Assembly: GCA_027328825.1 (NCBI GenBank)
Contig: DAHWTK010000002.1
Coordinates: 1 to 44,960 of the forward strand
Source of the DNA: Nitrospirota bacterium
GTDB lineage: Bacteria; Nitrospirota; JACRHJ01
DNA: 44,960 nucleotides
Reading direction: 5' to 3'
Of the stretch, positions 3,694 to 36,694 are shown in pieces. The position numbers were made by a program, and so were the translations under genes. Under the pieces are notes generated by a model that did no database searches, was not told where the DNA came from, and saw nothing but the letters and a program-made list of their open reading frames with translations. Within the stretch, counting starts at the first letter, position 1, and each line of letters opens with the position of its first letter.

Positions 3694-3736
3694 AAACCTC
3701 TAAAGTCGCTGGGTTCCCGCTTTCGCGGGAATGACG
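3694..3736. repeat. Family-A palindromic repeat, intergenic (gpT stop / TMP start)
   Basis: aaacctctaaagtcgctgggTTCCCGCtttcGCGGGAAtgacg. Near-identical copies at 4476, 14026, 16885 and 17056. Confidence 0.9.
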
Positions 3737-3737
3737 A

Positions 3738-4474
3738 TTATTTTTTATGCGCTCGCTCTGCCGCGTCCTTCATGGCCTTCTCATATATGATGTCCACCGC
3801 TTTCATCGCCAGCCGGAAAGTGTCCTCGCCGCAATCCTCGAAGAACCTGTCCATCACCCACGGGCCCAGACCGACTTCCTTCACGCTCAAAAGAGTTTCG
3901 GCCACGTCCCACGCCGCGAGAGCCGCCGGGAGCGGCCTCGGGTTCTTGCAGTTATCGCAGTCCGGCTCGTCTCCTATTTCCCGGTGGAGCGCCCGGCACT
4001 CGTATTTCCCCGGAAAGAGGCAGTCCACCCGGCCCGGGTTGTTTACCATCCACCGGGCGAACTCTACGAGTTTTTTTCCGTATACTCGCCGCCTTCCGGC
4101 ATCCCGGCGTCTGCTTTGGCCGGGAATATTTGCTCCTCGATGAAATCGAAGAATGGATACGAGTCGTCGCCGTCCTGAAAGTCGAGGAGCGCGAGCTTGT
4201 TCTCCTGGGTGCAGGGAAGCTCGACAGGCCCGGCGCCGTCTCCGCTGTCGGCCTTGATGCCCTTCCAGTCGAGGATCATTGCTGCATAGCTCTCGGCGTA
4301 GTAACGGTTCATGTCGGGCTTCTTGTCTTTGCCGTTACCTGCGGCGGTAAGCAACAGCGCCGCCCTTGCGCGCCGCCGGGTGAGCGGCTGGAGAAGGACC
4401 TGCGCCTCCTGGCCGTTGTATGTCCAGGTTGCCCAAAACGCCTCGCTTTTCTTTTTGTCGAGTTTTAAGTCCAT
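3738..4474 (-). CDS. Tail assembly chaperone gpGT-like fusion made by -1 frameshift
   Basis: The -1 frame from the A-run at 4070-4076 reads ..EKKLVEFARWMVNNPGRVD.. without stops into ORF 3738..4049. Position between major tail and TMP matches the conserved G/GT arrangement. Confidence 0.75.
4064..4474 (-). CDS. Tail assembly chaperone gpG-like
   Basis: 136-aa acidic ORF between the major tail gene and TMP, ending just after the slippery site. Confidence 0.75.
   Translation of the reverse strand: MDLKLDKKKSEAFWATWTYNGQEAQVLLQPLTRRRARAALLLTAAGNGKDKKPDMNRYYAESYAAMILDWKGIKADSGDGAGPVELPCTQENKLALLDFQDGDDSYPFFDFIEEQIFPAKADAGMPEGGEYTEKNS
4070..4076 (-). promoter_or_regulatory. -1 programmed frameshift slippery heptamer A_AAA_AAC
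   Basis: Zero frame reads ACG GAA AAA AAC TCG TAG. The heptamer fits X_XXY_YYZ, lies 2 codons before the gpG stop, and the -1 frame is open. Confidence 0.7.
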
Positions 4475-4475
4475 G

Positions 4476-4521
4476 AAAAACCCCCTAAAGTCGCTGGATT
4501 CCCGCCTTCGCGGGAATGACG
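4476..4521. repeat. Family-A palindromic repeat, intergenic (major tail stop / gpG start)
   Basis: aaaaaccccctaaagtcgctggaTTCCCGCcttcGCGGGAAtgacg. Confidence 0.9.
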
Positions 4522-4522
4522 T

Positions 4523-5959
4523 TTACAAAAACCAGATTGCCAGGTCGTCGTTACCGGCGTTGTAATACGGGTCCGCGTCGATTGTCAGGACGCGCTCGCC
4601 GGATTTGTCCGTTATCTTCGGGATCTTGAACGTCGTCTGCGGAAGGACCAGAGCGCAGACGTAGCCCGCCTTCGGGTTGCCGTTCGCGTCCATGGCGTAG
4701 CTCGGGAGCATCACCGCTTCCGACGTTATCGTCAGAGCGTCCCCGAAGAGGAACAGATCGCTCTGCCGGAAAAAGACTTCAAGCTTCGGCTTCAGGTCCC
4801 TTTCGCCGGGCGTGGCGTAGGACAGGACGTAGTCCTGCGCTATTGCCTCGTCCTCGTGGAACACGACCTTATTGTCCATGTCCACCTGGCCGGAAAGGAC
4901 GTTCATGGCCGCCCCGTTCAGGACCATCGTCCCGCGATGGCCCATGACTACCGTCCCGGACTCTACGCCCGCCGGTATCCAGGGATATACGTCTATTCCG
5001 TTCGCCGCCGTCCAGGCCTGCGCGCCCGTGCCCCTCGTCACCGTAAGGTCCGTCAGGTACGGGTTCGTGGGGCCGGCCCCGGCGTTCAGGGCCTTCCCGG
5101 TGACGATAAGCTTCGTCTCCGTGCTCGTCCCGTCGGAGAGGTTGAAACGCGCGCCGACGTCGAATTTCCGGCCGTCCTGCACCGTTACGACCGTCGCCGC
5201 GCCTGACGCGACGTCCGCATAAAGCGTGTCCGTGCCGCACCTGATGACGCGCTGGAAACCGGAACCCATGGTGAGCTCTACGTCCTCTCCGGGCTTTTTT
5301 ACGACCGAGATTTTGTCCCACACCGTGCCGAGATAAACGAAGACCTCGTCGTAAAAATCCTGCCAGACCGAGTAAGACGGAAGCTCGTCGGCGAGTGTAT
5401 AACCCACGGCGGCGTAAATGTTCGCCGTGGCGACGGGCGCGGCGGAAAATGCGGGGGCGACCGTGACGACGTTCGTTACCGCGTCTATCGCCGTTATGAG
5501 AGCAAGCTCCTGGTGCGCCGGGTTTCCGATATCCACGAGCACCGGTTGCCCGACAGAGAAGTTCGCGGGAGTACCGGGAAGGAAAGTCGTCGTCGTCGGG
5601 GCGGGAGCGGCCTGGACGGTATCCGCGGCGCGCGCGATCTTGTTCCCCATGCCGCCGTTCAGAAGCCTATCCTGAGGCGGAGCAGTCCCGGCGGTCCCGG
5701 AGACATACATGTGCGTCTTGAGGCTCCCGGTGCCGTGCTTGAGCATCCCAAGGAGCATCTTGCGTTTGCTCCGGGTCGCATGCGCGGCCTTGTCCTTCTT
5801 CAGGTCCGGCTCCTGGTCCCAGTTAGACGGGTCTATCGGGATAACGAGGTCTGTATTCGCCGGCTCGGCAATAGCGCCGTAACTCGTCTCCGGCACGACA
5901 AAGAAACGCTCCTTTCTGGACAGAGCGATATTGCTTGCGTTATATCTTTTCAGCGTCAT
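4523..5959 (-). CDS. Major tail (tube) protein with extra central domain
   Basis: 478 aa, ATG with GAGGAG RBS, immediately upstream of the G/GT chaperones. N-terminus ..FFVVPETSYGAIAEP.. resembles tail-tube N-termini. Called mainly from synteny. Confidence 0.5.
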   Translation of the reverse strand: MTLKRYNASNIALSRKERFFVVPETSYGAIAEPANTDLVIPIDPSNWDQEPDLKKDKAAHATRSKRKMLLGMLKHGTGSLKTHMYVSGTAGTAPPQDRLLNGGMGNKIARAADTVQAAPAPTTTTFLPGTPANFSVGQPVLVDIGNPAHQELALITAIDAVTNVVTVAPAFSAAPVATANIYAAVGYTLADELPSYSVWQDFYDEVFVYLGTVWDKISVVKKPGEDVELTMGSGFQRVIRCGTDTLYADVASGAATVVTVQDGRKFDVGARFNLSDGTSTETKLIVTGKALNAGAGPTNPYLTDLTVTRGTGAQAWTAANGIDVYPWIPAGVESGTVVMGHRGTMVLNGAAMNVLSGQVDMDNKVVFHEDEAIAQDYVLSYATPGERDLKPKLEVFFRQSDLFLFGDALTITSEAVMLPSYAMDANGNPKAGYVCALVLPQTTFKIPKITDKSGERVLTIDADPYYNAGNDDLAIWFL

Positions 5960-6188
5960 CGATCTTCTCCTCTTCCGCCTGCGGCTGTGGCGCGGGCTCC
6001 GTTACGTGTTCCTTTCCCATCCCGTCGCCCTCCGGGAGAGGGGCTGGTATTCGGGTTACCGTCCAGTCTTTTTCGCCGTCGAACGACCTGGCGATTTCCT
6101 CGCTTACCAAAAACCGCGTCCCCTTGACGAATACCCCGACGCCGTCTATCCTGACCTCGCCGGGTCCCTCGTATTTCAGTATCGGCAT
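5940..6188 (-). CDS. Hypothetical small virion-module protein (carries a family-B repeat in frame)
   Basis: ATG 6188 with GAGGTGAGG RBS, 82 aa. Confidence 0.5.
   Translation of the reverse strand: MPILKYEGPGEVRIDGVGVFVKGTRFLVSEEIARSFDGEKDWTVTRIPAPLPEGDGMGKEHVTEPAPQPQAEEEKIDDAEKI
6021..6044. repeat. Family-B palindromic repeat, in frame in CDS 5940..6188 (..PAPLPEGDGMG..)
   Basis: cccgtcgCCCTCcgggaGAGGGgc hairpin. Confidence 0.85.
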
Positions 6189-6192
6189 GTCC

Positions 6193-6681
6193 TCACCTCG
6201 AAAGAAGGTTTGTTTCCCAAAGTATCTCGATGCCCTTTACAACCGCGAACCTCGGATAATTGCTGCCCTCGTCGTACCCGGAGCCGAGCGGCTTTATCTG
6301 CTTGACGAGGCCGCCAAGGTTATCCGCCCGCTGGACGGCCTGGTCCACCAGCTCCTCAAGCGTCGTGACGTCGATAAAGCCGGGCTGGATATTCGGGAGT
6401 TCGCCTGAGTTCTCGCCATTGTTGAAAATCAGGATGTAGAGCAGGACCTTGTCGCTCATCTCGCCCATCATGCCGCCGATGAGCTTCGGCTCCTGCTCGA
6501 CACGGGTCATGAGGACCATCGGGCACATCTCCGCAGGTATCTCCTTCACTTCCCGGACGCCGTAGCGTATCGTGAGCGCTTTTCCGTACTGAGCCTGGCA
6601 GAATGCGGAGACGTCGGCGTCGGCGGTTATCGCGGCGGAAAGCGCGTCGAGGATGGATATGAAGGACTTATTCAAGGCCAT
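6193..6681 (-). CDS. Putative neck / tail-terminator protein
   Basis: 162 aa between the gp10-like gene and the major tail gene. Called from position only. Confidence 0.3.
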   Translation of the reverse strand: MALNKSFISILDALSAAITADADVSAFCQAQYGKALTIRYGVREVKEIPAEMCPMVLMTRVEQEPKLIGGMMGEMSDKVLLYILIFNNGENSGELPNIQPGFIDVTTLEELVDQAVQRADNLGGLVKQIKPLGSGYDEGSNYPRFAVVKGIEILWETNLLSR

Positions 6682-7120
6682 ATTTGTCCACCGTCTTTTT
6701 CAGTTCCTCGTCCGCGAAGCGAGGAGCGAGGCCGAGAAATTCCTTTGCGGGCGCCGACAGAAACGGGCGCCGCATCCCGATGACGCCGCCCAGTGCGCCG
6801 CGATGGACCCGGCCTTTCTCAATTGCGCCCGCGTATGCCGCCGAGTTCCCGACGTAAGCGACGCCCGGCTCAATGCGGAGTTTCATAAAAAGAGACCGCC
6901 GCAGGTGACCGGTTCGCACCGGGACGGGCCAGCCGCCGATTCCGGGATTGCGCCGATCCTTCGGCGCGATCCGCGGCCCCGACAGGTTGTCGAACGCCTT
7001 TTTGAAGACGTTCGTCGCGATCCTGCCGGCGATGTTGCTCGCCGTCTCGTCGGCGAGCGCCCTCTTCACTCCGGTGAGGGCGTTTAGCGCTTCCTGCGCA
7101 TGGAATTCGAAGCCGCTCAT
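6668..7120 (-). CDS. HK97 gp10-like head-tail joining protein
   Basis: 150 aa containing ..VRTGHLRRSL..VAYVGNSAAYAGAIEKG.., similar to the DTGxLRxS...YAxxVExG signature of the HK97 gp10 family. TAATG overlap with the upstream gene. Confidence 0.6.
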   Translation of the reverse strand: MSGFEFHAQEALNALTGVKRALADETASNIAGRIATNVFKKAFDNLSGPRIAPKDRRNPGIGGWPVPVRTGHLRRSLFMKLRIEPGVAYVGNSAAYAGAIEKGRVHRGALGGVIGMRRPFLSAPAKEFLGLAPRFADEELKKTVDKYGLE

Positions 7121-7896
7121 TACATATCCCCCGGGTCTGGCCCCGGAAGTGGAGGAGCTCCCGGGCCATAAGGCAAATCCTCAGGTAGAAACGACTGGCG
7201 CGGGAAATGACTCGACCGTGCTGTGATAGACGCAAAGGTCGATGGTCTCCCTGCGATACCCTCTATCCATTCGCAGGCCTTGTCGTACTCCGCGAGCGCG
7301 TCCTTTGCCGCCTGCTCCTCGGATAGTCCCACGCGGACATGCGCCTCCGCCGTCCCCTGGAACTCGCGGAGGAGCCTGGCCTTCCGCATCTGCCAGAGCT
7401 GAGCAACGGAAAGCTCGACAATGGCCTTGTTCGCCGCCGCGATCTGAAGCTCGTCGGTCGCGTTGATGATGATGTCATCGCCGTAACGCGCCCGGAGCTC
7501 GAGCAATTTATTGGCGACGATATTCGCGACCTTCGTCTGGAATCCGGCATTATCAGCCGGAGACAGCCCAAACATCGCGGGCGAGAAACCTCGGTCGATG
7601 ACATCCTGGATAAGGTCGGACTGCCCGACGGGCGCGGCTACGGTGGCGGCGTTCACACCGTAAACGAAGTTCCACTGCTGTTGCCCGACGGTAATCAGCA
7701 GAGAATATGCCCCACCCGTAGAAGGCGTGAAGCTCAGGGAATAAACACCCGGTTGACCGGCGACCGGCGTAACCGTCACGACGATAGCGGAGGCGTCGCC
7801 GTCGACGAGGACAAGATTTTTCGTAAAATCCACATCCGTAAGCCCGTCGGGCGCGCCGTAGAAAATGTCGGTTATCGTTTGTCCGGCAATATTCAT
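7120..7896 (-). CDS. Virion protein: beta-rich (Ig-like) N-domain plus helical C-half, possible head-tail adaptor
   Basis: 258 aa, ATG with GAGGA RBS. N-terminal ..VTVTPVAGQPGVYSLSFTPSTGGAYSLLITV.. looks Ig-like. Role inferred from position. Confidence 0.35.
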   Translation of the reverse strand: MNIAGQTITDIFYGAPDGLTDVDFTKNLVLVDGDASAIVVTVTPVAGQPGVYSLSFTPSTGGAYSLLITVGQQQWNFVYGVNAATVAAPVGQSDLIQDVIDRGFSPAMFGLSPADNAGFQTKVANIVANKLLELRARYGDDIIINATDELQIAAANKAIVELSVAQLWQMRKARLLREFQGTAEAHVRVGLSEEQAAKDALAEYDKACEWIEGIAGRPSTFASITARSSHFPRQSFLPEDLPYGPGAPPLPGPDPGDM

Positions 7897-7903
7897 GGGT
7901 TCC

Positions 7904-8704
7904 TCAATTCAAGACGCTCGCGTCTATCCACAGATTAAACCTGAGCACGGTGTTTATCATGGTGCCGTTTCTGATTTCGACCTCTGCCAGATATTTGCCA
8001 ACACGCAAAGAGGTATCGCTCGTCGATAAATTAATCAGGCCGGCACCCGTAGAGGCGTCGGTAACCTGCGCGGTAATGTCGCGGGCAGGGATTGCATACT
8101 GTGAGCTGATATAATTGGATTTCGCCCCGAACCAGACGGTATAACCCGTGATGTCCTTATTTACCGAATACGGTATCGATGCAGAGTCCCCATACGTCAC
8201 GTGGACGTCGTTGCCCTGGGCGACCGTCTCATAGGAAGCCGCGCCCTGGAACGGCAGGATCGTAATCGCTCCTGCGCCCCACTGGCCCGCGCCGTGGACG
8301 CTCGAAAGGTAGCTATTTATCGAGGTGGAGTTGACGTAGACCTGCGGTTCGGCTTCCACGTCTATCGATTCCGTCTCGCTGTCCGCATACATCCCCGTCG
8401 TGTTCTCGTAGGCGGTATAATGCGCGGAACCCGCCGGGCACGTGAACGACCCGCCGTAGACGCCCGACTGGCCGTCCGCCGGGACCATCGTAGTCGCCGA
8501 GCGGAAGACGGTGCCGTCCTGCCGGATAATCGTGAGCTTCGGCTTTAGGCCAGTAACACCCGCGCCCGCCGATGTAATCTGCAACCGGAGCGGTACTACG
8601 TCCCCCGGCGCGGCGACAATCGCCCAGGCTGTCCCGGCTATCAGCAGAGCGAGCGCGGCAAAAACGCCTGTCATTCTGAGCGTAGTGAAAAATCCGCTTT
8701 TCAT
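7904..8704 (-). CDS. Exported beta-rich protein
   Basis: ATG at 8704 preferred over the track's TTG at 8719 (GGAGG 6 nt upstream). N-terminus MKSGFFTTLRMTGVFAALALLIAGTAWA, whose first 12 codons are encoded by a family-C repeat. Confidence 0.6.
   Translation of the reverse strand: MKSGFFTTLRMTGVFAALALLIAGTAWAIVAAPGDVVPLRLQITSAGAGVTGLKPKLTIIRQDGTVFRSATTMVPADGQSGVYGGSFTCPAGSAHYTAYENTTGMYADSETESIDVEAEPQVYVNSTSINSYLSSVHGAGQWGAGAITILPFQGAASYETVAQGNDVHVTYGDSASIPYSVNKDITGYTVWFGAKSNYISSQYAIPARDITAQVTDASTGAGLINLSTSDTSLRVGKYLAEVEIRNGTMINTVLRFNLWIDASVLN
8670..8704. repeat. Family-C repeat, supplies the start codon and N-terminus of CDS 7904..8704
   Basis: gtcattctgagcgtagtgaaaaatccgcttttcat. Compare 9570-9604 and 35808-35839. 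Confidence 0.9.
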
Positions 8705-8731
8705 TTCATGCCTCCGCAAGGCCCGCAGTGT

Positions 8732-8747
8732 TCCCGAAATTTCGGGA
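8732..8747. repeat. Perfect 16-bp palindrome TCCCGAAATTTCGGGA (function unknown)
   Basis: Read directly. Lies about 30 nt upstream of the 8704 start, in the cytochrome / exported-protein intergenic gap. Confidence 0.5.
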
Positions 8748-8861
8748 CGCTCCGGAGCACCTCACAGCACCCCTTGTTAATCGGTTGGCCGTTGAACTGC
8801 CATACCGGGCAGGCGCTCACGAGGATTGCAGTTATCGTTTTCCAGGGCCGTCCGCGTTTTT

Positions 8862-9422
8862 TCATTTGTAAATACCCGTCGTGTTTAAATAGTTGAGGCC
8901 CGTATTATTTTCATAATGCGGGTTATGGCAATGCGGGCACTCGTATGCCTGCGACACCACCGGCGTCCCCCCCGACACCGCCGCGCCGGATTTAAACACG
9001 CTTATGGCCCCGGTCGTGAGGCTGTGCGAGGCAAGCGGTGCCGGGCCGTTGTAGACGCTCAATAATTTTGTCGATGTCAGCGTCATTTTCGGCGTCCCGA
9101 CGCCCGCGCTGTTGTGGCAGGACAGGCACGCGGAATCCATGTAGCGGACGTTCCCCAATATCCCCAAAACCCACCCGCGAGAGCTCCGATTGACGAACCG
9201 CGTCCTGTTGACGGTCGTATAATTCCGTATCAGCCCCCATACGCTTCCGCGCGCCGCATGGCACGCGCCGCAGTTGTTAGCGCCATACATGCTGGTATAG
9301 TTAGCGTGCGGCCCGGACACGGTTACGCCGTCCAGACGGTAGCTCGGCATGGCGGACGCGGCAACCACGGCCAGAAACAGCGTAACCGCCGCGAACGCGG
9401 ATATGGATACCGTGCGCCTCAA
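8862..9422 (-). CDS. Exported tri-haem c-type cytochrome
   Basis: Three CXXCH motifs (CGACH, CLSCH, CPHCH followed by NPH). Signal-like N-terminus MRRTVSISAFAAVTLFLAVVAASA. TTG start overlapping the upstream stop (TTGA), GGAGGG 8 nt upstream. Confidence 0.7.
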   Translation of the reverse strand: MRRTVSISAFAAVTLFLAVVAASAMPSYRLDGVTVSGPHANYTSMYGANNCGACHAARGSVWGLIRNYTTVNRTRFVNRSSRGWVLGILGNVRYMDSACLSCHNSAGVGTPKMTLTSTKLLSVYNGPAPLASHSLTTGAISVFKSGAAVSGGTPVVSQAYECPHCHNPHYENNTGLNYLNTTGIYK

Positions 9423-9604
9423 AGACTATGCCCTCCAAGCGGAGCAACGCTATAATCCCGGAGCGGGGCGGCAACCGCCGCCGACGCCCCGGAAACCGGC
9501 GCGGGAGACCCGTTCATATCGCCCATCCAGGCATACGCGCACCCGCCGAATACGGCGAGGAGCAGGAGTGTCATTCTGAGCGTAGCGAAGAATCTGCTTT
9601 GCAT
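9419..9604 (-). CDS. Small exported / lipoprotein-like protein
   Basis: MQSRFFATLRMTLLLLAVFGGCAYA.. The N-terminus is encoded by a family-C repeat. Start is ATG 9604 or TTG 9610. Confidence 0.4.
   Translation of the reverse strand: MQSRFFATLRMTLLLLAVFGGCAYAWMGDMNGSPAPVSGASAAVAAPLRDYSVAPLGGHSL
9570..9604. repeat. Family-C repeat, supplies the start codon and N-terminus of CDS 9419..9604
   Basis: gtcattctgagcgtagcgaagaatctgctttgcat. Confidence 0.9.
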
Positions 9605-9606
9605 CG

Positions 9607-10155
9607 TCAATACCTGTATAAAATCGTAAAATAATACGACGCCGGGCTTGCCCCGGTATTTGTAACGGTCGCCTCAATCTGGCTGTTGCCGTCCTCATTT
9701 ACGTATGGGATTATCCCCTGGCTGTCCTCGCTCCACATGGAGCCGTCGGCCACCAGACTGTTGAAGTTCGCCGAGCCGCAATACGTGTCCGAGTTATATG
9801 CGCCGCCGCGCCGGGCCGCGCGGGAGTAAAATTTCACCTTGCACGCAGAGTTAGCTGTCGCCACGGTTGACACCGATACAATCTCGACCTGATCCGGGTC
9901 GGTTATCGCCGCACCCGCGGTGAGCACCGGCACGGTCACATCCACGGACGCCCCCGCAGCGAGGCTCCCGGCGTCGATGTGCGCAATGCCGTATTGATAT
10001 TTTACGAATATCGGCGTCGACGCCTCGGTGCGGATGCCGAGCGTTTTTGTCGAGGCATCGTATGTGAGGTTCCCCAGGTTCACCTCGCCGGCGTAGGCAT
10101 AAATCGACCATATTGCTGACGCCAGCAATATGGTTATCGCAAATAATTTTTTCAT
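9607..10155 (-). CDS. Exported protein of unknown function
   Basis: Trimmed to ATG 10155 (AGGAG RBS). MKKLFAITILLASAIWSIYAYA signal peptide, beta-rich mature part. Confidence 0.6.
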   Translation of the reverse strand: MKKLFAITILLASAIWSIYAYAGEVNLGNLTYDASTKTLGIRTEASTPIFVKYQYGIAHIDAGSLAAGASVDVTVPVLTAGAAITDPDQVEIVSVSTVATANSACKVKFYSRAARRGGAYNSDTYCGSANFNSLVADGSMWSEDSQGIIPYVNEDGNSQIEATVTNTGASPASYYFTILYRY

Positions 10156-10252: not shown

Positions 10253-10654
10253 CTACTGAATTATCCCCTTCGTCCGGAGCGCGCCGACGGTGGACGTGAT
10301 GAAATTGTCCAGCGTGTTCGCGTCGATTCCGGTGGCTGTGGCTACGGCGCCGAGATTGTCCGTTACCGCGCTTTCGGCGGACTGGATGCCGGTCTTTTCC
10401 AGGCCGGAAAGGATCGTCTTGGCCGCGATGTCCTTTTTGTTGGCGCCCGCGGGCGCGGATGCCGCCGCCACGACGCCCTGGATAACGAGGTTCGGAAGCT
10501 GAGGCGCTTCTTTCTCGATTGCCGCTTTCAGGACGTGCCAGGTCCAGAGGCCGACTTCCTCCAGCGCCGTCAATGTCTTTTTGCCTGCGCTCTCGACGAA
10601 AGCCGAGACCTCTCCGATAAGCTGCTGCCCGGGGCTTTTCTGTTCCTCTGACAT
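10253..10654 (-). CDS. Hypothetical protein
   Basis: Trimmed to ATG 10654 (GGAGGG RBS), abutting the stop of 10656..10871. Confidence 0.5.
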   Translation of the reverse strand: MSEEQKSPGQQLIGEVSAFVESAGKKTLTALEEVGLWTWHVLKAAIEKEAPQLPNLVIQGVVAAASAPAGANKKDIAAKTILSGLEKTGIQSAESAVTDNLGAVATATGIDANTLDNFITSTVGALRTKGIIQ

Positions 10655-10655
10655 A

Positions 10656-10871
10656 TTACCCTCCTGTGAAAAATCTTCTGACTGCTCTCCCGACCTTCCG
10701 CCAGTAGGAAGGCTCGTCCCAGTCGCCTTTTCCTGAAACCTCAAAAAAAACGCCTTGACCGCCTGTGGTGTCCTGTCCATCTTTCGGTTTCCCCTTCACA
10801 TCTACCGAGATGCCGATGTCCTCGCCCTCGATGCCGTCGCTGTCGTCCAGTTTCAGGTCTAACCGGGCCAT
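10656..10871 (-). CDS. Hypothetical acidic protein
   Basis: 71-aa ORF with ATG 10871, directly after the holin-like gene. Confidence 0.4.
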   Translation of the reverse strand: MARLDLKLDDSDGIEGEDIGISVDVKGKPKDGQDTTGGQGVFFEVSGKGDWDEPSYWRKVGRAVRRFFTGG

Positions 10872-10875
10872 TTAT

Positions 10876-11334
10876 TTATATTCCAGGAAATTCAAATAAG
10901 TGAAAACAGCCTGACAGCATAAGCGCAACCAGAACAAAACCGGTCAAGAATAACACTTTAAGACGCGCAAAACCCTTGTCGTTAAACGCCGTCATCTTGT
11001 CATCGGAAAGTTCCGAATGCTTTGCTGTGATAGTGGTTGCGGCGGCGTCATAACTCGGCGGATCCAGACCCGCGTCCGTCATCATCTTTGTGTAGAGCTC
11101 CACGGCCTGGTCGAGCTTCTGTTTGCCGCTCCAGCCGTTCAATTTTCCGGACGCCTCGGCAGCGCGGACCGCCTTCTCCGCGAAAAGGCCGCCAGCGACG
11201 GCCACGTCCTGGATATACTTCGGCTGTTTTTTCAGCCAGCCGACGTACCACTTCATGCCGAACTTCATGGCCAGTCCGATAATCGCCGACGCGCCTATCA
11301 ACCCGATCGCCGCGTGGATTAAGTAGTTCTGCAA
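10876..11334 (-). CDS. Holin-like membrane protein (LL-H-like layout)
   Basis: TTG start with GGAGGTG RBS. N-terminal TM (AAIGLIGASAIIGLA), ..AEKAVRAAEASG.. helix, C-terminal hydrophobic segment. Lies next to the endolysin. Confidence 0.45.
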   Translation of the reverse strand: MQNYLIHAAIGLIGASAIIGLAMKFGMKWYVGWLKKQPKYIQDVAVAGGLFAEKAVRAAEASGKLNGWSGKQKLDQAVELYTKMMTDAGLDPPSYDAAATTITAKHSELSDDKMTAFNDKGFARLKVLFLTGFVLVALMLSGCFHLFEFPGI

Positions 11335-11346
11335 AACGCACCTCCT

Positions 11347-11799
11347 TTATGCAAGCGGCTCGCGCGCAACCTTTTCGAGATTCGCGAGCCTGTTCAACCA
11401 ACCCGACAAGAACCGGGCTTCTTTAGGTTTGTTCTTCGCTATCGTCTCATAACGAAGCTTTCTGATACCGATGAAGGCGTTCCAGTCGTCGCCCGCAGCC
11501 GCGAGCATATTCCGCGCGGTTCCCTCGCCCATGTTCACTGCGGTATCGAATACCAGCAGACACAAAGGCCAGGAAAGCTTGTCGCAACCCGCGAGTTTCC
11601 AGTAATTATTGAAATACAGGTCTTTCGCGGCGGCGAGAGCATCACCTCTCGACATGGTCATCATGCGCTTCACAAGGTAGGGGTAATACCTGCCTGAGAC
11701 ACCGAAGATAGTCAGACCGCCGGGGTCGCCCTGGAGGTTCGATTCGTAACCCTCCTCGCCGACGACCACGGAAAAAGATTTCTCAAATTCAGCGCTCAT
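11347..11799 (-). CDS. Endolysin, GH108-type muramidase with peptidoglycan-binding C-half
   Basis: ..VVGEEGYESNLQGDPGGLTIFGVS.. matches the EGGY..D.GG.T..GI motif. ..FDTAVNMGEGTA.. and ..GWLNRL.. match the associated PG-binding region. Confidence 0.8.
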   Translation of the reverse strand: MSAEFEKSFSVVVGEEGYESNLQGDPGGLTIFGVSGRYYPYLVKRMMTMSRGDALAAAKDLYFNNYWKLAGCDKLSWPLCLLVFDTAVNMGEGTARNMLAAAGDDWNAFIGIRKLRYETIAKNKPKEARFLSGWLNRLANLEKVAREPLA

Positions 11800-12277: not shown

Positions 12278-12832
12278 TTACCACTGATTGTCGCGGCCTT
12301 CCGTCACGTAAAAATCGACTGCGCGGTTGCCGGATCTCGTAAATGAAACAGCCAGTTTATTGGCGCAGACAGGGATTGTAATCGCGCCGTCGTGAGTGAA
12401 ATCCATACCCGTCGCACCGACGTAATAAAGAGACCATGGGCCGCTGTCGGTCGGCGCGGTATAGATTTTAAAATGACTAGGCGAGATGTCCGAATAGCCG
12501 CCGAAACGATATGCGTGGCCGGCCGTCTTCCCGGATGCCGTGGAATAGTTGTACCAGCCGCCGTAAACGCCTTTCCACTGGATGGTGGCGTAACGCCAGC
12601 CCGCGATGTCCCATATTTCGCCGTTGCCGGTAGACTGGACGTTGTAGTTCGTGTCCAGGATATTCATCGTCCCGCTGAAGTCGAACTGCTCGACGCCAGA
12701 GACGCCGGTCCAGTTCGTATATCCGGCGGTGGTGGTCTGCGACGCCGTGCCGCCGGTAAACCTGTCCGCAAAAGCGGAGACGGCCATGATGCTTATGAGC
12801 ATCGCCGCCATGAAAAACAAGAATTTTTTCAT
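12278..12832 (-). CDS. Exported beta-rich protein
   Basis: Trimmed to ATG 12832 (GGAGG, 5-nt spacer), because the track's longer ORF overlaps the capsid gene. MKKFLFFMAAMLISIMAVSAFA signal peptide. Confidence 0.6.
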   Translation of the reverse strand: MKKFLFFMAAMLISIMAVSAFADRFTGGTASQTTTAGYTNWTGVSGVEQFDFSGTMNILDTNYNVQSTGNGEIWDIAGWRYATIQWKGVYGGWYNYSTASGKTAGHAYRFGGYSDISPSHFKIYTAPTDSGPWSLYYVGATGMDFTHDGAITIPVCANKLAVSFTRSGNRAVDFYVTEGRDNQW

Positions 12833-12858
12833 CTGACCCTCCAAGTGAAAATGGGTTT

Positions 12859-12877
12859 GGGGGCCGGAAAGGCCCCC
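12859..12877 (-). terminator. GC hairpin after the capsid gene (possible attenuator)
   Basis: GGGGGCC-ggaaa-GGCCCCC. On the minus strand only a weak T-tract follows. Confidence 0.3.
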
Positions 12878-12890
12878 TTCCCCGTGATTA

Positions 12891-14006
12891 TTACGCGGCC
12901 ATCGGCAAGCGCTTGAACTGTTTCGGGTTGCCAATGCCGAAATTGTATTGTTCCTTGCCGACCATCTCCTCGGACTTCTTGAAGATGTCGCGCTGCCCCT
13001 CCATCTGAAGGTCCATCCACGTGCCCATCTTCGTCTGGTAAAAAGGAAGCACCACGTAGAAGCGCGTCTTGTCCTTGAGCCTCCTGGTCGTGATGATGTT
13101 GTCGATGGTGTAGTTTATCCGGGAGACCTTCTGCTCTGCCTGGGCGAAGGGGTTCAGGAGCGAGTCCAGGGCGAACGCGATCGCCTTGAATGCCTCCGGC
13201 GGGCAGAGGATGTTGAAGCTCGGGTTATCCGGCAACCCGTAGCCCATGTACTCGATGTCATAGACCATCTGGATACAGGCGTTGTCGATGGTCGTGATGA
13301 GGTTCGTGTCGTAGGCAAAGTCCACGCCGTTATTCGGCAGGATGTTGCCGTTCGCGTCCTTACCGAGCGCCTCGATGAGGCCGTAGGCCAGGGAAGTTTT
13401 GAGCATCTGCCTCTTCAGGCGGAACTGCTCCAAAACGTCGTCCATCTTCCAGAACCACTCGAACTCCCACCAGTCGTCCAGGAAACCGATGGCGGCCATG
13501 AAGTTCAGGTAGTAGACCGCGAGTATCTGCGACTTGTCTCCGACACCGCCGACCGTTACCTTCTCGCCCTCGCCGACCTGCTGCCAGACGATGGAGTCCG
13601 TGGCGGAGTCTATCGTAAAGTGGTCTTTGCGCGTTCCCCTCATGTCCACCGGTTTGTATATCTTCTCGTACCCCAGATCGGGCGCAAGCGCGCCGGTGAT
13701 GTACCGCTCAATCATGAACGGGTCCGGGGCCTGCGTCAGAGGCGTCCCGCCTCCGGTGCCAGGCGCGGCGAAGGGATAACCCGACGGGGCGGGGATGTTA
13801 TCCTTCATGCCGCCCGCCATCCACGCCTTGAGCATCATGGCCGACATAACCCTTCCGGAGTCTGCACCCAGCCGCGGGTCGGGCGTTTTCAGGTAGGCGT
13901 TTATCGCGCCCACGAACTTCTTTGTCTCTTCGGGCGTCCAATCCCTGGGCGTCCTTCCGCCCATGGACTGCATCATTTTCGCCCACTTTATCTTCGGTGC
14001 GAACAT
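12891..14006 (-). CDS. Major capsid protein
   Basis: 371 aa, strong GGAGGG RBS. Position after portal, protease/scaffold and the DUF2190-like gene. Confidence 0.7.
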   Translation of the reverse strand: MFAPKIKWAKMMQSMGGRTPRDWTPEETKKFVGAINAYLKTPDPRLGADSGRVMSAMMLKAWMAGGMKDNIPAPSGYPFAAPGTGGGTPLTQAPDPFMIERYITGALAPDLGYEKIYKPVDMRGTRKDHFTIDSATDSIVWQQVGEGEKVTVGGVGDKSQILAVYYLNFMAAIGFLDDWWEFEWFWKMDDVLEQFRLKRQMLKTSLAYGLIEALGKDANGNILPNNGVDFAYDTNLITTIDNACIQMVYDIEYMGYGLPDNPSFNILCPPEAFKAIAFALDSLLNPFAQAEQKVSRINYTIDNIITTRRLKDKTRFYVVLPFYQTKMGTWMDLQMEGQRDIFKKSEEMVGKEQYNFGIGNPKQFKRLPMAA

Positions 14007-14025
14007 TTCGTGTCCCTCCTGTTAA

Positions 14026-14063
14026 TTAAAAAGTCTCTGGATTCCCGCTTTTGCGGGGACGAC
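14026..14063. repeat. Family-A palindromic repeat, intergenic (DUF2190-like stop / capsid start)
   Basis: ttaaaaagtctctggaTTCCCGCttttGCGGGGAcgac. Confidence 0.85.
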
Positions 14064-14067
14064 TAAA

Positions 14068-14445
14068 TTAAAGAAGCGCGTGCTCCATCATCAGCTCGCA
14101 GTCTACCGTCGCATTGCCCTGCGCCGAGTCCGCATGCGCGACACCGAAGAGCTTCAGACCCGCCGCATCGACGTTCGTAGCCCAGTTGTTCACCGGGTCC
14201 CAGTAGAGCTTGTCGCCGCCCTTTATCGCGACGGCCGCCTGCGGAAACGCGATTATCTCCGCATCCACGATAAACATGCCGCTTACGCCGGCGGCTATCG
14301 CGGCGAACGCCACGGCAACCAGCGTGTTGCCCGCGGTGCCGGTCAAAACAACGATGTCCATCGGGCCGCACGCGGCGGCGGGAGTCATACGGCGCGTTCT
14401 GTAGCCGCCGCTCGAAGATTTATTTATTGCCTGCACGTTTGCCAT
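14068..14445 (-). CDS. DUF2190-like head protein (decoration/cement type)
   Basis: 125 aa with ..GMFIVDAEIIAFPQAAVAIKGGDKLYWD.. pattern. Placed between the protease and capsid genes, as is typical for this family. Confidence 0.55.
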   Translation of the reverse strand: MANVQAINKSSSGGYRTRRMTPAAACGPMDIVVLTGTAGNTLVAVAFAAIAAGVSGMFIVDAEIIAFPQAAVAIKGGDKLYWDPVNNWATNVDAAGLKLFGVAHADSAQGNATVDCELMMEHALL

Positions 14446-14525: not shown

Positions 14526-16019
14526 TTACTCCAGCCAGTCGTTTCCGGCGGCGGTTTCGAGCGATTTCGTGCCTTCGCCGGGACCCCCGGTGGTGCGCTT
14601 TTTGTCCTTCATCTCCTCGCCGGGGAGTTCGGCCTGGTCGGGGAACCTCTTCATGGCTTCCTCGGCCTGCACTTTTCCTTCCCTTCTGAGGTCGGCTATC
14701 GACCAGCCGCCGATGAAGGACTTGTAATTCTCAATGTCCTCCGGTCTGTCGCCGCATTTTCCCAGGAGCCGGGCGTTCTTGATGTAGTTGTCTATCAAGC
14801 CGTCCCGGTATGCCTTCCCGGCGGCGGCAAGGACCTTGATGTCCGCGACGGTCACGCCGTCCTTTATACCCAGGACTGCCTTCATGTCCTTCAGCTTCGT
14901 CTCGGTGGCCTCGTTAAGCACCACGAGGTCTTTATGCTTCGTCTCGGTCTCCTCGCGGCGCGCCTTCTCCGCCTCATAAAGTTCCTTGTATTCCATGTTT
15001 TCTCCTTCATCTTCAGGGTTGATGTGATTATGTGAACAACCGGCGCAGGCGGCCTTATCGACCGTAACCGCGCCAGGCTGGGCGCCAAGCCAGACAGACG
15101 AGGTCTCGTATGCCTCGCCGGGAGACTGCCACTCGTCATAAAGGGTATTCGACGGGTTCGACGGGTCTTTTACGGTCACCGGTCCCGAACCGCTAAACGA
15201 GAGCGATACGAAACGGTGGATGCCGCCGTCGATGTTCTTGCGCATGTCCTCGTTGGACGGCATTTTTATCGCGTACATATGCCCCTTCAGGACGGTCATC
15301 ATGCCCATACCCGGAGGGAGCTGAGGCCTTTCGCCTGTCATGGCCTCAAACTCATCCGGCGACATCATGGCCGTCTCTGCGTGGAACCAGGTCCCTTGCG
15401 CAGGCCCTTTCTGGCCGCCGTAACTCCCCGGATGGCCGCCGGAATTGTTAAAATAGCCCTTGCCGGGAAGCGTCCGGGCGAAATCCGAAAGAACGGACTC
15501 GTGAAACCGCTCGCCGTCCCGATCCACCGCGTTATGCGCCACCATAAAAGGAGCAACATAAACATCGTCAGGCGTGAGAGCGGCATGTGAAAAACGGTTT
15601 ATCTTCGACATCATCTCTGGTGTGGCCTCTACGCCCTCACCGAGTTTACGCGGGACGCCCTCGGCGTCCTTCCACTTATAAAGCGTGAGACCTTTAGTAT
15701 GCATTCCGGAAACCGACTTGCCGTCTATCAGATTCAGGAGCGTAGCTGCTGCGGACTCGATGACCGTCGCGCCTTCGGCTCCGGCGCGTTGCTTCGCGGC
15801 GATAACGCCAGAGCGGTAGACCCTCCCGCCTTTAACGATGGGATATTTCCACTCCTGCTCCGTTCCCTTCTTGGCCGGATCGTGGCCAAGAAAACAGTTT
15901 GGAGCGAGCTTTTTGCGCTCGTCGTTTGAGAGACTCCAGCCGGAATTCCTGTCCACTGAGCCACCAGCGATAAGCGTCCGGGCATGAGAGACGCCGGCGC
16001 TATTCAATTCAACCCCCAC
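14526..16019 (-). CDS. Prohead protease (HK97/S78-like) fused to a coiled-coil scaffold-like C-terminus
   Basis: ..AHNAVDRDGERF.., ..IDGGIHRFVSLSF.. and ..YETSSVWLGAQPGA.. resemble S78 protease blocks. C-terminal EYKELYEAEKARREETETKHKDL.. is coiled coil. GTG start with GGAG RBS. Confidence 0.6.
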   Translation of the reverse strand: MGVELNSAGVSHARTLIAGGSVDRNSGWSLSNDERKKLAPNCFLGHDPAKKGTEQEWKYPIVKGGRVYRSGVIAAKQRAGAEGATVIESAAATLLNLIDGKSVSGMHTKGLTLYKWKDAEGVPRKLGEGVEATPEMMSKINRFSHAALTPDDVYVAPFMVAHNAVDRDGERFHESVLSDFARTLPGKGYFNNSGGHPGSYGGQKGPAQGTWFHAETAMMSPDEFEAMTGERPQLPPGMGMMTVLKGHMYAIKMPSNEDMRKNIDGGIHRFVSLSFSGSGPVTVKDPSNPSNTLYDEWQSPGEAYETSSVWLGAQPGAVTVDKAACAGCSHNHINPEDEGENMEYKELYEAEKARREETETKHKDLVVLNEATETKLKDMKAVLGIKDGVTVADIKVLAAAGKAYRDGLIDNYIKNARLLGKCGDRPEDIENYKSFIGGWSIADLRREGKVQAEEAMKRFPDQAELPGEEMKDKKRTTGGPGEGTKSLETAAGNDWLE

Positions 16020-16284: not shown

Positions 16285-18585
16285 TTAAGTTAATTCGCTC
16301 TGAGCCAGATTGACCGAGCAGGTGCAGCGCGGGTGCGTGTCCTCCACGGGAACCGGGCAATCGTCGATGTCATAGTCGCCTTCGAGCGAGGCGCAGATCG
16401 AACAAGCGCCCGACGCCGGGGAAAAATGGACTCGCTTTATCTTTTCCGCCTTCCACTCGTCGCGCTTTCCCCGTTCCTGGGCGAGGCAGACCTCCGAGCG
16501 GACGAGCCGCTCCCAGTTCCCGTTCCATGCGCCGAACTGTTTCGCAAGGCCGGACGCAATCTCGCGCGGGTTCGCGCCCCGGAGCATACCAGTCTGGAGT
16601 GCGGGTTTTATCTCGTCCTGATAGAACCGTGTCGCGTCGTTCCTCACGAGGTCGAAGCCGTTATTCAAGAGCTTTTTGTAGACCTCCTCGTTGTGGAGGA
16701 GGTCGAGGACGGGAATCCCAACGCCGGACTCCTGCGCCGCCTGGAGGAAGCCAAGCGCGTGGGCCTGCCCGGTATAACTCGACACGGGGCCCTGTGTGGT
16801 CTGCGAGTCTGCGTTCATCTCGTCCGCGAACTGCCGTATGGCGTCCCGGACCTCCCGGAGGTCGGCGGCCGTGAACTCGAAACCCTTAAAAAGTCCCTGG
16901 GTTCCCGCTTTCGCGGGAATGACAAGATTAAGTATCCCGAAGACCTTCTCCTGAAGGCTTACCCAGAGAGCGGAAACGGAAGCGAGGCCCTGCTGGATAA
17001 TCGCCTCGGCCTGGGAGTCCTTGACCTTCGCCTCCTTGCAGACGTGATGCGTTTTGTCATTCCCGCGAAAGTGGGAATCCGGGGATTTAAAAGTCGCTGG
17101 GCCCCCGTTTTCACGGGGGTGACGGACGAACTTTACCGTCGTGAGTACCTTGCCGGTGGCGACATCCGTTTCCGTCTCGATCTCGGTATCGTTTTGGAGT
17201 TGCAGACTATTTGCGATCATCATGTCCGCCTGAGCGTTCAGGAACCGGGCCTGGGCCGCCTGTTGGATGTTATGCAGGTTCGGCGAGACAAGCGAGAGCA
17301 CGTAATCGCCTTTCTTCCATGTGCGGCCACGAGCGCGAAGCACATCGCGGGCGAGAAGATCGAGATGTGGAAGAATTACTGCTTTCCTTTGTTCGGCATC
17401 CTGCATCGCAAGGGCGGACTCCGGGTCGTCCACCGCACCCGCCTGACGGCCGGATGAGATGCCTGCCATCCACGGCTGAAGCCTTGCCTTGGCAAGTATC
17501 TGCTCGACGCATATCCTGTAGGACACCTCTTTTTGCGTGATAATTTTTCCGTCGCCGCCGATGACCTTTATGTCTAATACGCTGTCCTTGTCAAGGACGT
17601 TTATAAAGTCACCGGAAAGGCCATGCCGTTTTCTGTGCATCACCTCGTCGAAATCTTCACGTAAATCCTCGGCAAGTTTTTCCGCCTTTGTTTTGCCGTC
17701 GGCATCGGTGGAATCGAGATATTTTTCTGAACTCCGAAGCTGAACATTGTAGCTGGGGTCTCCGAACCGCTCGAAAATGTTCCGGTCCTGGTTAATTAGC
17801 GTTGCAAAAAGCTGCGCGACAAACTCCATCCCGGAAAGAAGGCTCTCGCCGTAAGGGTCCTGGTTGTTACCATGAAAGGAGAGGTACATCTTGTTCGTGA
17901 GATCGAGCGGGATTTCCATCGGCGCCCAGACGGGATAATATCCGAGCGACGACCATGTCCCGCTCAGGAGATGCGGATCTATAAGCTGGTGCGTACGATA
18001 CGTCGGGTCGTACAGGCCGAGCCGCGGCCAGGGCTTAGGCCGCATCGTCGCGTAGATATTGCCGAACTCGTCATTTTTAAAGAAAAGAAACTTGGAGTCG
18101 CCAATCCTAAGCTGCCGGATGTCTTTCCGGTCTTTCGTCCAGACCTTCTCGGCGAACGCGAAGCCCTGTTCGAATACCTCGTTCTGCCAATTATCGAGAA
18201 AGGCCTGTATGCCAACCTGAAAATCATTAACCTGCACAAAAGTGAAAAACTCGCGAAGCTCCTCCACAATTTTGTCGTTGCCGCCCGTGATTTGAAGTGT
18301 GCCGGTAAGACCTGCCAGAGTCCTGATTATCCCGCCGATAAGAGGTATCGCCTCGCGCATCACCTCGTAAAACTCAGGCGCGACCACGCGCGGGACATAA
18401 CCCTGGAACCACGTTGAGAACGGCCCCTGCGGTGCGGCCTGACGGAGCTGTGCGACGCTGACATTCGGTCTTGCGGGCGGCAAAGGCCACGTCGGGAACG
18501 CCGCCCGACCTGCGCCGGAACTTGCCCCGGACGGGTCTTTGGCATTCCGCAGGTCGAGCGCGTCTATAAGGGGATAACCGCTCAT
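16285..18585 (-). CDS. Portal protein fused to a MuF/SPP1-gp7-like head morphogenesis domain
   Basis: ATG 18585 overlaps the TerL stop (ATGA), with AAGGGGG RBS. The N-terminal ~480 aa are portal-like by size and position. The C-terminus ..VRSEV..FSPASGACSICASL..THPRCTCSV matches the MuF HPxCRC end. Confidence 0.7.
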   Translation of the reverse strand: MSGYPLIDALDLRNAKDPSGASSGAGRAAFPTWPLPPARPNVSVAQLRQAAPQGPFSTWFQGYVPRVVAPEFYEVMREAIPLIGGIIRTLAGLTGTLQITGGNDKIVEELREFFTFVQVNDFQVGIQAFLDNWQNEVFEQGFAFAEKVWTKDRKDIRQLRIGDSKFLFFKNDEFGNIYATMRPKPWPRLGLYDPTYRTHQLIDPHLLSGTWSSLGYYPVWAPMEIPLDLTNKMYLSFHGNNQDPYGESLLSGMEFVAQLFATLINQDRNIFERFGDPSYNVQLRSSEKYLDSTDADGKTKAEKLAEDLREDFDEVMHRKRHGLSGDFINVLDKDSVLDIKVIGGDGKIITQKEVSYRICVEQILAKARLQPWMAGISSGRQAGAVDDPESALAMQDAEQRKAVILPHLDLLARDVLRARGRTWKKGDYVLSLVSPNLHNIQQAAQARFLNAQADMMIANSLQLQNDTEIETETDVATGKVLTTVKFVRHPRENGGPATFKSPDSHFRGNDKTHHVCKEAKVKDSQAEAIIQQGLASVSALWVSLQEKVFGILNLVIPAKAGTQGLFKGFEFTAADLREVRDAIRQFADEMNADSQTTQGPVSSYTGQAHALGFLQAAQESGVGIPVLDLLHNEEVYKKLLNNGFDLVRNDATRFYQDEIKPALQTGMLRGANPREIASGLAKQFGAWNGNWERLVRSEVCLAQERGKRDEWKAEKIKRVHFSPASGACSICASLEGDYDIDDCPVPVEDTHPRCTCSVNLAQSELT
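16885..16923. repeat. Family-A repeat, in frame in portal/MuF linker (..VIPAKAGTQGLFKGF..)
   Basis: cttaaaaagtccctgggTTCCCGCtttcGCGGGAAtgac. Confidence 0.9.
17056..17123. repeat. Full-length family-A element (two hairpins), in frame in portal/MuF linker (..HPRENGGPATFKSPDSHFRGNDK..)
   Basis: gtcaTTCCCGCgaaagtGGGAAtccggggatttaaaagtcgctggGCCCCCGttttcaCGGGGGtgac. Confidence 0.9.
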
Positions 18586-21458: not shown

Positions 21459-21531
21459 TGGAGCGGGCGGAAGGAGTTGCACCTTCGCCTCCGGCCTGGT
21501 GGGACGGCGCTATACACTTAGCTACGCCCGC
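21459..21531 (-). ncRNA. tRNA-like element / degenerate tRNA ending in CCA
   Basis: The minus strand GCGGGCGTAGCTAAGTGTATAGCGCCGTCCCACCAGGCCGGAGGCGAAGGTGCAACTCCTTCCGCCCGCTCCA folds as follows:
- perfect 7-bp acceptor stem and U8
- 4-bp D stem
- 5-bp T stem with 7-nt loop
- 17-nt anticodon arm with one T:C mismatch
Atypical points: C33, no GG in the D loop, G55. Confidence 0.4.
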
Positions 21532-21675: not shown

Positions 21676-21680
21676 ATAAG

Positions 21681-21716
21681 CCCTCACCCCCGCCCCTCTC
21701 CCGGAGGGCGAGGGGT
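21681..21716. repeat. Family-B palindromic repeat, intergenic
   Basis: ccctcacccccgCCCCTCTCCcggaggGCGAGGGGt. Confidence 0.9.
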
Positions 21717-21724
21717 AAAAGGTG

Positions 21725-35807: not shown

Positions 35808-35839
35808 AAAAGCAGATTCTTCGCTTCGCTCAGAATGAC
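35808..35839. repeat. Family-C repeat, intergenic (opposite orientation to the other two)
   Basis: aaagcagattcttcgcttcgctcagaatgac. Confidence 0.85.
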
Positions 35840-36624: not shown

Positions 36625-36694
36625 AACTCCCTCCAAGTCACCTCGTAAATATCCGGGGCAGGGCGGCGAGGCATCCGCCTTTTCGGTTGCAAGC

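Follow-up and report, generated by a model that had tools for sequence, protein, structure and literature searches.

Several described systems come close to the one reported here. Tri-haem cytochromes c7 of the PpcA type are proteins of about 70 residues with closely packed haems, and doubled-CXXCH cytochromes (PF09699, TIGR01905) have two CXXCH haem-binding motifs per domain of about 41 residues. Temperate phages carry morons in their late operons, lom and bor of lambda being examples. The amoC-phages, which have jumbo genomes, encode a host-like NapC/NirT multihaem cytochrome c that groups with its host homologues, a classical auxiliary metabolic gene (AMG) (bioRxiv 10.64898/2026.06.18.733297); our literature search on phage-encoded c-type and multihaem cytochromes returned this preprint as the sole phage multihaem report and no description of the family presented below. 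We analysed a stretch of 44,960 nucleotides, hereafter the window (contig DAHWTK010000002.1 of assembly GCA_027328825.1, labelled Nitrospirota bacterium). A first interpretation of its letters (the sequence-only reading) had singled out a 186-aa open reading frame (ORF) as an exported tri-haem cytochrome encoded among virion genes; the ORF is present at 8862-9422 but lies on the minus strand. Our analysis indicates that this ORF very probably encodes an exported tri-haem c-type cytochrome and belongs to an accessory phage cassette, in the order B-C-cytochrome-Z-D (Table 1).

The three CXXCH motifs named by the sequence-only reading (CGACH, CLSCH, and CPHCH followed by NPH) were confirmed and lie far beyond chance expectation. 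In 200,000 composition-preserving shuffles of the residues of the cytochrome, three CXXCH motifs never occurred and two occurred once. Six-frame translation of the whole window gave four CXXCH motifs, three of them in this ORF, and all six cysteines of the protein fall inside the three motifs. The motifs are separated by 48 and 63 residues and are never paired. Covalent attachment of haem to each of them would be expected from these features.

The N-terminus was also described correctly by the sequence-only reading, which had called it a classic signal peptide. Signal peptides were judged here from simple features, namely the n-h-c layout, hydrophobicity and an AXA site. The protein starts with MRR, continues with a hydrophobic core at about residues 4-22 (12-residue Kyte-Doolittle mean of up to 2.7) and reaches a predicted cleavage site between ASA and MPSY. 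The same layout with an AXA site was found in all homologues, and the N-terminus of the cytochrome looks like a Sec-type signal peptide. Export by the twin-arginine translocation (Tat) pathway was ruled out: the equivalent N-termini of the homologues lack the RR pair, and export is therefore predicted to be of the Sec type. Translation of the cytochrome is coupled to the upstream 63-aa ORF C through the arrangement GGAGGG-catagtct-TTGA, in which the TTG start overlaps the TGA stop. This junction, a ribosome-binding site (RBS) followed by a 4-nt overlap, was claimed from the window and was kept in seven of seven loci (the window, L001, L002, L007, L008, L009 and L010; L numbers denote the loci that we compared).

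Two follow-ups suggested by the sequence-only reading, a profile search against cytochrome families and a comparison of homologues, came out in its favour. The protein matched PF09699 (Paired_CXXCH_1) with 36.1 bits (curated cut-off 20.6) and TIGR01905 with 26.6 bits (curated cut-off 25.2). All six other family members scanned also passed TIGR01905, the relatives scoring 26-32 bits. The proposed resemblance of CPHCH-NPH to doubled-CXXCH cytochromes was upheld by these scores and by the shared C-x-x-C-H-x-P-H signature, but not for the paired motif itself. Each match takes in a single motif and covers only positions ~5-25 of the 41-residue profile, motif 3 (CPHCHNPH) matching its first half, and the window cytochrome nowhere has two CXXCH within one such domain. 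The protein is therefore not a canonical paired-motif domain. The weakest profile matches, P0020, P0021 and P0024 (E 5e-5 to 8e-4), are small exported cytochromes, and P0020 and P0024 share with the phage family the order of a His-containing N-terminal motif, CxxCH, CLSCH and CxxCHxPH, but end in a fourth CXXCH that the phage family lacks. The surroundings of P0024, a relative of cellular type, were uninformative, its contig being only 1.6 kb long.

Similarly to cytochromes c7, the phage protein is small, would carry three haems in the periplasm and gives weak matches to both c7 models. Unlike them, it has widely spaced motifs and a mature length of about 160 aa, and both scores stay below the cut-off (PF14522, 22.2 against 24.8; TIGR04257, 21 against 40). 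On these grounds we take it not to be a c7 cytochrome. It also scored below threshold with the models for MtrC/OmcA decahaem cytochromes, DmsE, NrfB, NrfH and c554, and far below with the decahaem, DmsE, NrfB and NrfH models. PHROGs contained no family for the cytochrome, B, C or D.

In an alignment of 13 sequences reaching down to 25% identity, every Cys and His of the three CXXCH motifs was kept without exception. Further invariant residues were Y28, G32, V35, G37, H39, M45, N104, S134, P168, H169, Y178 and L179. Among these, H39, M45 and H169 are probably the sixth haem ligands, two His and one Met for three haems; such ligands would suit a hexacoordinate electron-transfer cytochrome rather than an enzyme. 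The ratio of non-synonymous to synonymous substitution rates (dN/dS) of the cytochrome gene was 0.29 between the window and L001 and 0.20 between L002 and L007, and the gene is under purifying selection.

The family is tiny and, in the searches made, confined to phage-like contigs, with no cellular homologue detected. A search of 5.8 billion proteins returned 8 homologous proteins. The family profile found 13 matches with E <= 1e-3 among 1.84 billion cluster representatives, only 5 of them with E <= 1e-10. From IMG/VR and JGI metagenomes came a single additional phage (L008; L021 is the same contig) and one further contig (L020). Two alignments run over 185,579 GTDB species genomes, in a pattern-based scan that could miss distant relatives, yielded no relative, and 50,697 GenBank phages gave no protein or DNA match to the cytochrome, B, D or the whole cassette. 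The close cellular homologue expected of a host-derived AMG was thus not found, and every recovered context was phage-like. In this the family differs from the NapC/NirT cytochrome of the amoC-phages, with which it shares only being a multihaem c-type cytochrome on a phage: it lies on phage-like contigs of 30-45 kb, in the structural and lysis region, and is coupled to exported binding proteins.

All contigs that carry a homologue and are long enough to judge are tailed-phage structural regions, and in each of them the cytochrome lies between head genes and neck or sheath genes. The window, L001, L002, L007, L008 and L010 share synteny of B, C, cytochrome and D, and parts of the cassette are present in L009, L014, L018 and L022. 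The junctions between cytochrome, Z and D are 4-nt overlaps in the window, L001, L002, L008 and L010. The backbones are diverse. L001 has Mu gp36/gp37, a sheath and a P2-like baseplate, L002 a Mu-like head and baseplate, L007 Phage_portal and an S78 protease, and L010 Mu gp36/37 and a sheath. No sheath gene was recognised in L008, an IMG/VR contig, and L018 is a siphovirus with Phage_tube_2, tail_L and GpJ. L014-L016 have a lambda-like GpA terminase and a ClpP-capsid fusion, L022 has an SU10-type adaptor, and L009 is a short contig of an NCBI metagenome-assembled genome (MAG). BLAST showed B, C (or a longer C'), cytochrome and D to be homologous across loci, but most flanking genes not. The cassette proteins of L002 and L007 share 73-86% identity where they align (about 52% for D), whereas the head and tail genes gave no match except a 27% identical terminase. 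The cassette thus moves as a unit among about nine phage backbones, often beside lysis genes.

Related prophages lack the cassette. In L011, located on a 623-kb MAG contig, and in L013, the portal, protease, decoration and capsid proteins are 47-56% identical to those of L002, and the capsid gene gpT directly abuts gp36; in L002, the 3.9 kb between the two genes are the cassette. L018 has lost most of its cytochrome. An in-frame deletion has removed haems 1 and 2 and left a 74-aa remnant (327-551, P0015) made of the signal peptide and the last 54 residues with the third CXXCH, and B, C, Z and D around it are intact. Absence from related prophages together with the deletion in L018 therefore indicates that the cassette is accessory and, in these genomes, evidently dispensable.

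In this respect the cassette resembles the late-operon morons of temperate phages, which likewise place an exported product among late structural genes as an insertion relative to related phages. Unlike morons, it is a five-gene translationally coupled unit found in the same slot of unrelated backbones, has no own promoter that we could detect and shows no compositional contrast. Neither GC content nor skew across the window was anomalous at the cassette. Promoter and terminator scans (sigma-70 consensus), a sigma-54 pattern and an alignment of the regions upstream of B yielded no convincing shared promoter; in neither the window nor L002 did a promoter signal before B, C or the cytochrome rise above background, and no terminator stood out in the window. 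L002 has a strong intrinsic-terminator hairpin (11-bp stem followed by TTTTTATTTT) at 8763-8788, directly upstream of B, and another long hairpin at 7936-7976, after the capsid gene; its cassette may be a separately regulated unit.

The partners of the cytochrome are mostly predicted to be exported. Homologues of B lie upstream of the cytochrome in L002, L007, L008, L009, L010, L014, L018 and L022. Its AlphaFold2 model is an all-beta jelly roll (predicted local distance difference test (pLDDT) 63, predicted template modelling score (pTM) 0.55), and the best Foldseek matches, with TM-scores of 0.4-0.5, were TNF-like lectins (BC2L-C N-domain, PLTL), viral jelly-roll capsid proteins and phage tail-fibre domains, which identify the fold class only. 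C ends in repeated units of the form (A/T)PLGx[H/Y]S[L/I/V], as do its homologues in L001, L009, L014, L018 and L022. The final unit falls on the RBS and on the cytochrome start that overlaps it, and the constraint could act on the peptide, the mRNA or both. A lipoprotein or spanin role for C was rejected, its Cys not being conserved in L001.

Z was missing from the ORF list owing to its size of 54 aa and occupies what seemed to be a gap between cytochrome and D, overlapping the cytochrome stop and the D start with ATGA on both sides. Its sequence runs MKKRGRPWK...CPVW...CCEVL...HCGPCGG and had no significant family match. Z stands alone as an ORF in four loci (the window, L001, L007 and L018). 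L002 and L008 have a Z-D fusion instead, in which Z forms a Cys-rich cytoplasmic N-terminus and a single transmembrane helix comes after it. D always lies immediately after the cytochrome or Z. It has an immunoglobulin (Ig)-like N-domain, in some loci fibre repeats of the W-x-Y-x-x-R-x-L-T type, and a C-terminal domain with weak BppU_N matches. No paralogues of the cassette proteins, such as a tail protein with the C-terminal domain of D, were found in the window.

The explanation that we lean towards is that the cytochrome joins C, Z-D and B in a complex of the envelope and functions there, not by itself or on the virion. It would be translated late from the structural and lysis operon, coupled to C, exported unfolded via Sec and cleaved after ASA. 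In the periplasm, the cytochrome-c maturation machinery of the host would attach haem to the three CXXCH motifs, and H39, M45 and H169 would serve as sixth ligands, giving a hexacoordinate electron-transfer protein and not an enzyme. The cytochrome would then be the redox component of a cassette whose other products are predicted to be exported or membrane-anchored binding proteins, B a lectin-like jelly roll and D a fibre/Ig protein. As a mobile insert, this cassette would occupy the interval from head to neck genes in unrelated tailed phages, whose hosts are probably Nitrospirota. C, cytochrome, Z and D would most likely be made in fixed proportion and act jointly in the infected cell's envelope, at lysis or just ahead of it. 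The motifs and their conservation, the cassette, and its mobility and dispensability are observed; export, haem attachment, complex formation and electron transfer are all predictions drawn from the sequences.

Several points weigh against this explanation. Complex formation is suggested by gene coupling and co-occurrence only, it is not obvious what a phage would gain from a periplasmic electron carrier produced only late in infection, and B and D, as binding proteins, do not suggest a respiratory role. Confidence in the model of B is moderate, and the folds that it matched are jelly rolls of a generic kind. The AlphaFold2 model of the cytochrome, built on an alignment of eight sequences, was unusable (pLDDT 33, pTM 0.24), an outcome to be expected because haems are absent from the model and the alignment is shallow. 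Profile searches of PDB sequences with two alignments gave a best E of 0.01, at the level of motifs only. The naming of Nitrospirota as hosts draws on MAG labels and tail-module similarity, as described below.

Alternatively, the cytochrome could be a stand-alone AMG, a free periplasmic shuttle that feeds into the host respiratory chain and so maintains or redirects the energy supply late in infection, independently of its cassette neighbours; its partners could then be imagined among the nitrite oxidoreductase, hydrogenase or sulfur-cycle enzymes of a Nitrospirota host. A small exported multihaem protein with candidate His/His/Met sixth ligands is typical of electron carriers, and cyanophages carry exported plastocyanin. 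The NapC/NirT cytochrome of the amoC-phages, reported as an AMG, is a phage-borne multihaem precedent (bioRxiv 10.64898/2026.06.18.733297). Known AMGs are host-like, however, whereas this family lacks a cellular homologue in the GTDB representatives and occurs on phage-like contigs only. Strict coupling to and co-inheritance with C, Z and D favour a joint function, and we found no other redox or haem-maturation gene in the window. We regard such a shuttle as unlikely, though realistic. It is rather improbable that the cassette serves lysogenic conversion or superinfection exclusion, with B, C, cytochrome and D expressed from the prophage to remodel or mask envelope structures such as a receptor and the cytochrome acting as a structural or redox cofactor. 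The backbones do resemble temperate types, three tyrosine-recombinase genes lie in the window, the cassette is inserted when compared with related prophages, and Nitrospirota prophages have, at their cargo end, exported fibre-like proteins that share 70% identity with the C-terminal domain of D. The terminator before B in L002 would moreover allow the cassette to be its own transcription unit. Yet the promoter scans and the GC and skew profiles speak against it, the cytochrome gene lies among late genes, to which it is coupled, next to the lysis genes, and PADLOC gave no meaningful match for A, X, B, C, cytochrome, Z, D, the ORF at 7120-7896 or E.

In L002, hydrophobic N-termini occur only in the cassette proteins, and the head, neck, sheath and baseplate proteins are without them. 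The cytochrome fits neither the cytoplasmic assembly nor the conservation in related virions that mark a virion structural protein; a classical, cytoplasmically assembled virion role is unlikely because the signal peptide is cleavable and related phages do without the protein. Virions might instead be decorated after lysis: the exported, haem-loaded cytochrome and B and D, all matured in the periplasm, would bind progeny virions once holin and endolysin mix the compartments, giving a particle that is redox-active or binds minerals or haem receptors. The constant position of the cassette at the head-neck junction of the structural module, its production along with lysis genes and the resemblance of B and D to phage adhesins (a jelly roll matching tail-fibre proteins, a BppU_N-like domain) would fit. 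Against this stand the dispensability of the cassette in related phages, the deletion of the cytochrome in L018 and the D of L002 and L008, which is membrane-anchored with a cytoplasmic N-terminus, unlike a released decoration protein. To our knowledge there is no precedent for decoration of such kind, and we consider it very unlikely. A periplasmic redox sensor seems highly improbable. Here, the cytochrome would report the redox or energy state of the envelope to Z-D and so tune late transcription or the timing of lysis; fused Z-D, with a cytoplasmic Cys-rich domain containing GRP, one transmembrane helix and a periplasmic domain, has a ToxR-like topology. The fusion in L002 and L008, the strict adjacency to the cytochrome and the holin and endolysin genes that neighbour the cassette in the window and L008 are in agreement with such a sensor, and bacterial c-type haem sensor domains exist (PMC12889525). 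However, Z has no significant family match, DNA binding is guessed from the short basic GRP motif, and in the window, L001, L007 and L018 Z and D are separate proteins, which would break a transmembrane relay. Finally, it is scarcely credible that the ORF is spurious or that the protein carries no haem, its CXXCH motifs binding zinc or iron in a cytoplasmic structural protein. The zf-CHY match that would speak for it (E 0.005) is weak and below the Pfam cut-off. The signal peptide is conserved, cytochrome profiles are matched above threshold, the His of each CXXCH is invariant, three further candidate axial ligands are conserved, and the gene is under purifying selection.

The host is probably a member of the Nitrospirota, to judge from tail-module similarity and the NCBI labels of MAGs. 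Prophages in MAGs labelled Nitrospirota encode fibre-like proteins with signal peptides, located after the lysis genes at the prophage ends, whose C-termini share about 70% identity with the C-terminal domain of D. These prophages also have counterparts, at 43-56% identity, of three further products of the window: a 1013-aa CBM_4_9 tail-tip protein, the fibre-like ORF at the window start and protein E. Signal-peptide-bearing fibre- or adhesin-like proteins are unusually dense in the late regions of these phages (the ORF at the window start, E and A in the window; 8793-10912 in L011; 7327-11332 in L013).

Short palindromic elements resembling repetitive extragenic palindromic (REP) sequences, in three families, are scattered over the window. 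Two copies of one family, 900 bp apart, bracket C, cytochrome and Z. Some copies lie inside the portal and terminase ORFs, and some are translated into the beginning of signal peptides (as FFATLRMT in the window and as VPAFAGMT in L001 and L018). As a host marker in the loci fetched, the REP patterns gave one family common only to the nearest relatives L001 and L018; the flanks of the Nitrospirota prophages lacked it. L014-L016 and L022 include B and C, and their sequence stops precisely within a repeat element where the cytochrome gene begins; the last 23 codons of L022 are the N-terminus of the cytochrome P0004. The REP-like contig ends lie at 10771-10977 in L014, at the end of L015 and at 9837-9905 in L022. 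Assemblies therefore probably break at cassette genes whose signal peptides derive from repeat elements, and the cytochrome family is probably under-sampled in metagenomes.

Table 1. Features of the 44,960-nucleotide window discussed in the text; assignments are predictions.
Feature	Positions	Strand	Remarks
Tri-haem c-type cytochrome precursor	8862-9422	minus	186 aa, TTG start
Signal peptide, residues 1-24, MRRTVSISAFAAVTLFLAVVAASA before MPSY	9351-9422	minus	hydrophobicity profile and AXA site
Haem-binding motif 1, CGACH (C51-H55)	9258-9272	minus	invariant in 13 sequences
Haem-binding motif 2, CLSCH (C99-H103)	9114-9128	minus	13-sequence alignment; N104 likewise invariant
Haem-binding motif 3, CPHCHNPH (C162-H169)	8916-8939	minus	P168, H169 invariant
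RBS GGAGGG (9436-9431), 8-nt spacer, TTG start overlapping upstream TGA stop as TTGA	9419-9436	minus	sequence
Cassette protein B, exported, ~180 aa	9607-10206	minus	probable ATG 10155; jelly-roll / TNF-like lectin-type model
Cassette protein C, small exported	9419-9610	minus	ends ...PLGGHSL; coupled to cytochrome; dN/dS 0.15
Cassette protein Z, 54-aa Cys-rich	8701-8865	minus	N-terminal KKRGRPW, no signal peptide; dN/dS 0.13
Cassette protein D, exported	7904-8704	minus	Ig-like domain and BppU_N-like C-terminal domain
REP-like element (TGTCATTCTGAGCGTAGTGAAAAATC...), family D15	8669-8704	plus	translated as first residues of D
Second copy of the same REP-like element	9569-9604	plus	translated as first residues of C
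REP-like family	8669-8704, 9569-9604, 35809-35839		
REP-like family	3694-3740, 4479-4525, 14022-14068, 16882-17128		
REP-like family	6021-6044, 19747-19791, 21677-21721, 24746-24790, 25546-25569, 32193-32216, 36220-36243		
Terminase region	18582-20630	minus	
Portal	16285-18609	minus	
Protease/scaffold-like gene	14526-16019	minus	
Major capsid	12891-14006	minus	
Exported protein A	12278-12934	minus	probable ATG 12832; directly after major capsid gene
GH108 endolysin	11347-11799	minus	
Holin	10876-11334	minus	
Protein X	10253-10780	minus	175 aa
Ig-like protein	7120-7896	minus	after cassette
Neck1-type gene	6668-7120	minus	phrog_5
Fibre-like ORF at window start	1-~1150	minus	tail-fibre-type repeats; runs off window start
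Protein E, signal-peptide ORF	44367-44957	minus	
tRNA-Gly(acc)	21459-21531	minus	
Tyrosine-recombinase-like ORF	27090-28130	minus	
Tyrosine-recombinase-like ORF	35908-36783	minus	
Tyrosine-recombinase-like ORF	39676-40761	plus	
Short direct and inverted repeats (TTGCTCCACCC units)	28429-28712		just upstream of replication-type ORF
Replication-type ORF	28787-30910		707 aa

The gene order in Table 1 upholds the placement of the cytochrome in the late structural operon. Its position between capsid and neck genes, as given by the sequence-only reading, is likewise right in outline; the correction is that its nearer upstream neighbours are the endolysin and holin genes and genes for exported proteins. 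The window holin and GH108 endolysin genes thus lie between the capsid and neck genes and not at the end of the late region, and L008 has the same placement with a different endolysin. Exported protein A co-occurs with the cassette in L002, L008 and L014/L015. Beyond the neck gene, the minus strand encodes a 478-aa putative major tail protein and an 841-aa tape-measure-like protein. Elsewhere in the window there is one tRNA gene, and the three tyrosine-recombinase-like ORFs are more integrases than a single temperate phage normally needs in a contig of 45 kb. The repeat cluster upstream of the replication-type ORF may be an iteron-type origin. A circular contig was rejected, since joining both ends would fuse two ORFs in frame.

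We also entertain, as quite unlikely, an undescribed phage assembly of the envelope or the extracellular space in which the tri-haem cytochrome, matured in the periplasm, is joined to the phage-type adhesins B and D, and which would either decorate progeny after lysis as a redox-active, haem-bearing particle or form a transmembrane relay from the cytochrome to Z-D that times lysis. If such an assembly existed, haem chemistry would be part of the phage's own infection machinery and not a borrowed step of host metabolism. The cytochrome is small and easy to express, so that the making of a haem protein by a phage, its localisation and its electron partners are directly testable. Its probable hosts, the Nitrospirota, are little studied and relevant to nitrogen and sulfur cycling. 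Redox genes of phages can usually be recognised as copies of host genes. In the present case, a multihaem family appears to be confined to phage-like contigs, which suggests that phages put haem to a use of their own in the host envelope late in infection.

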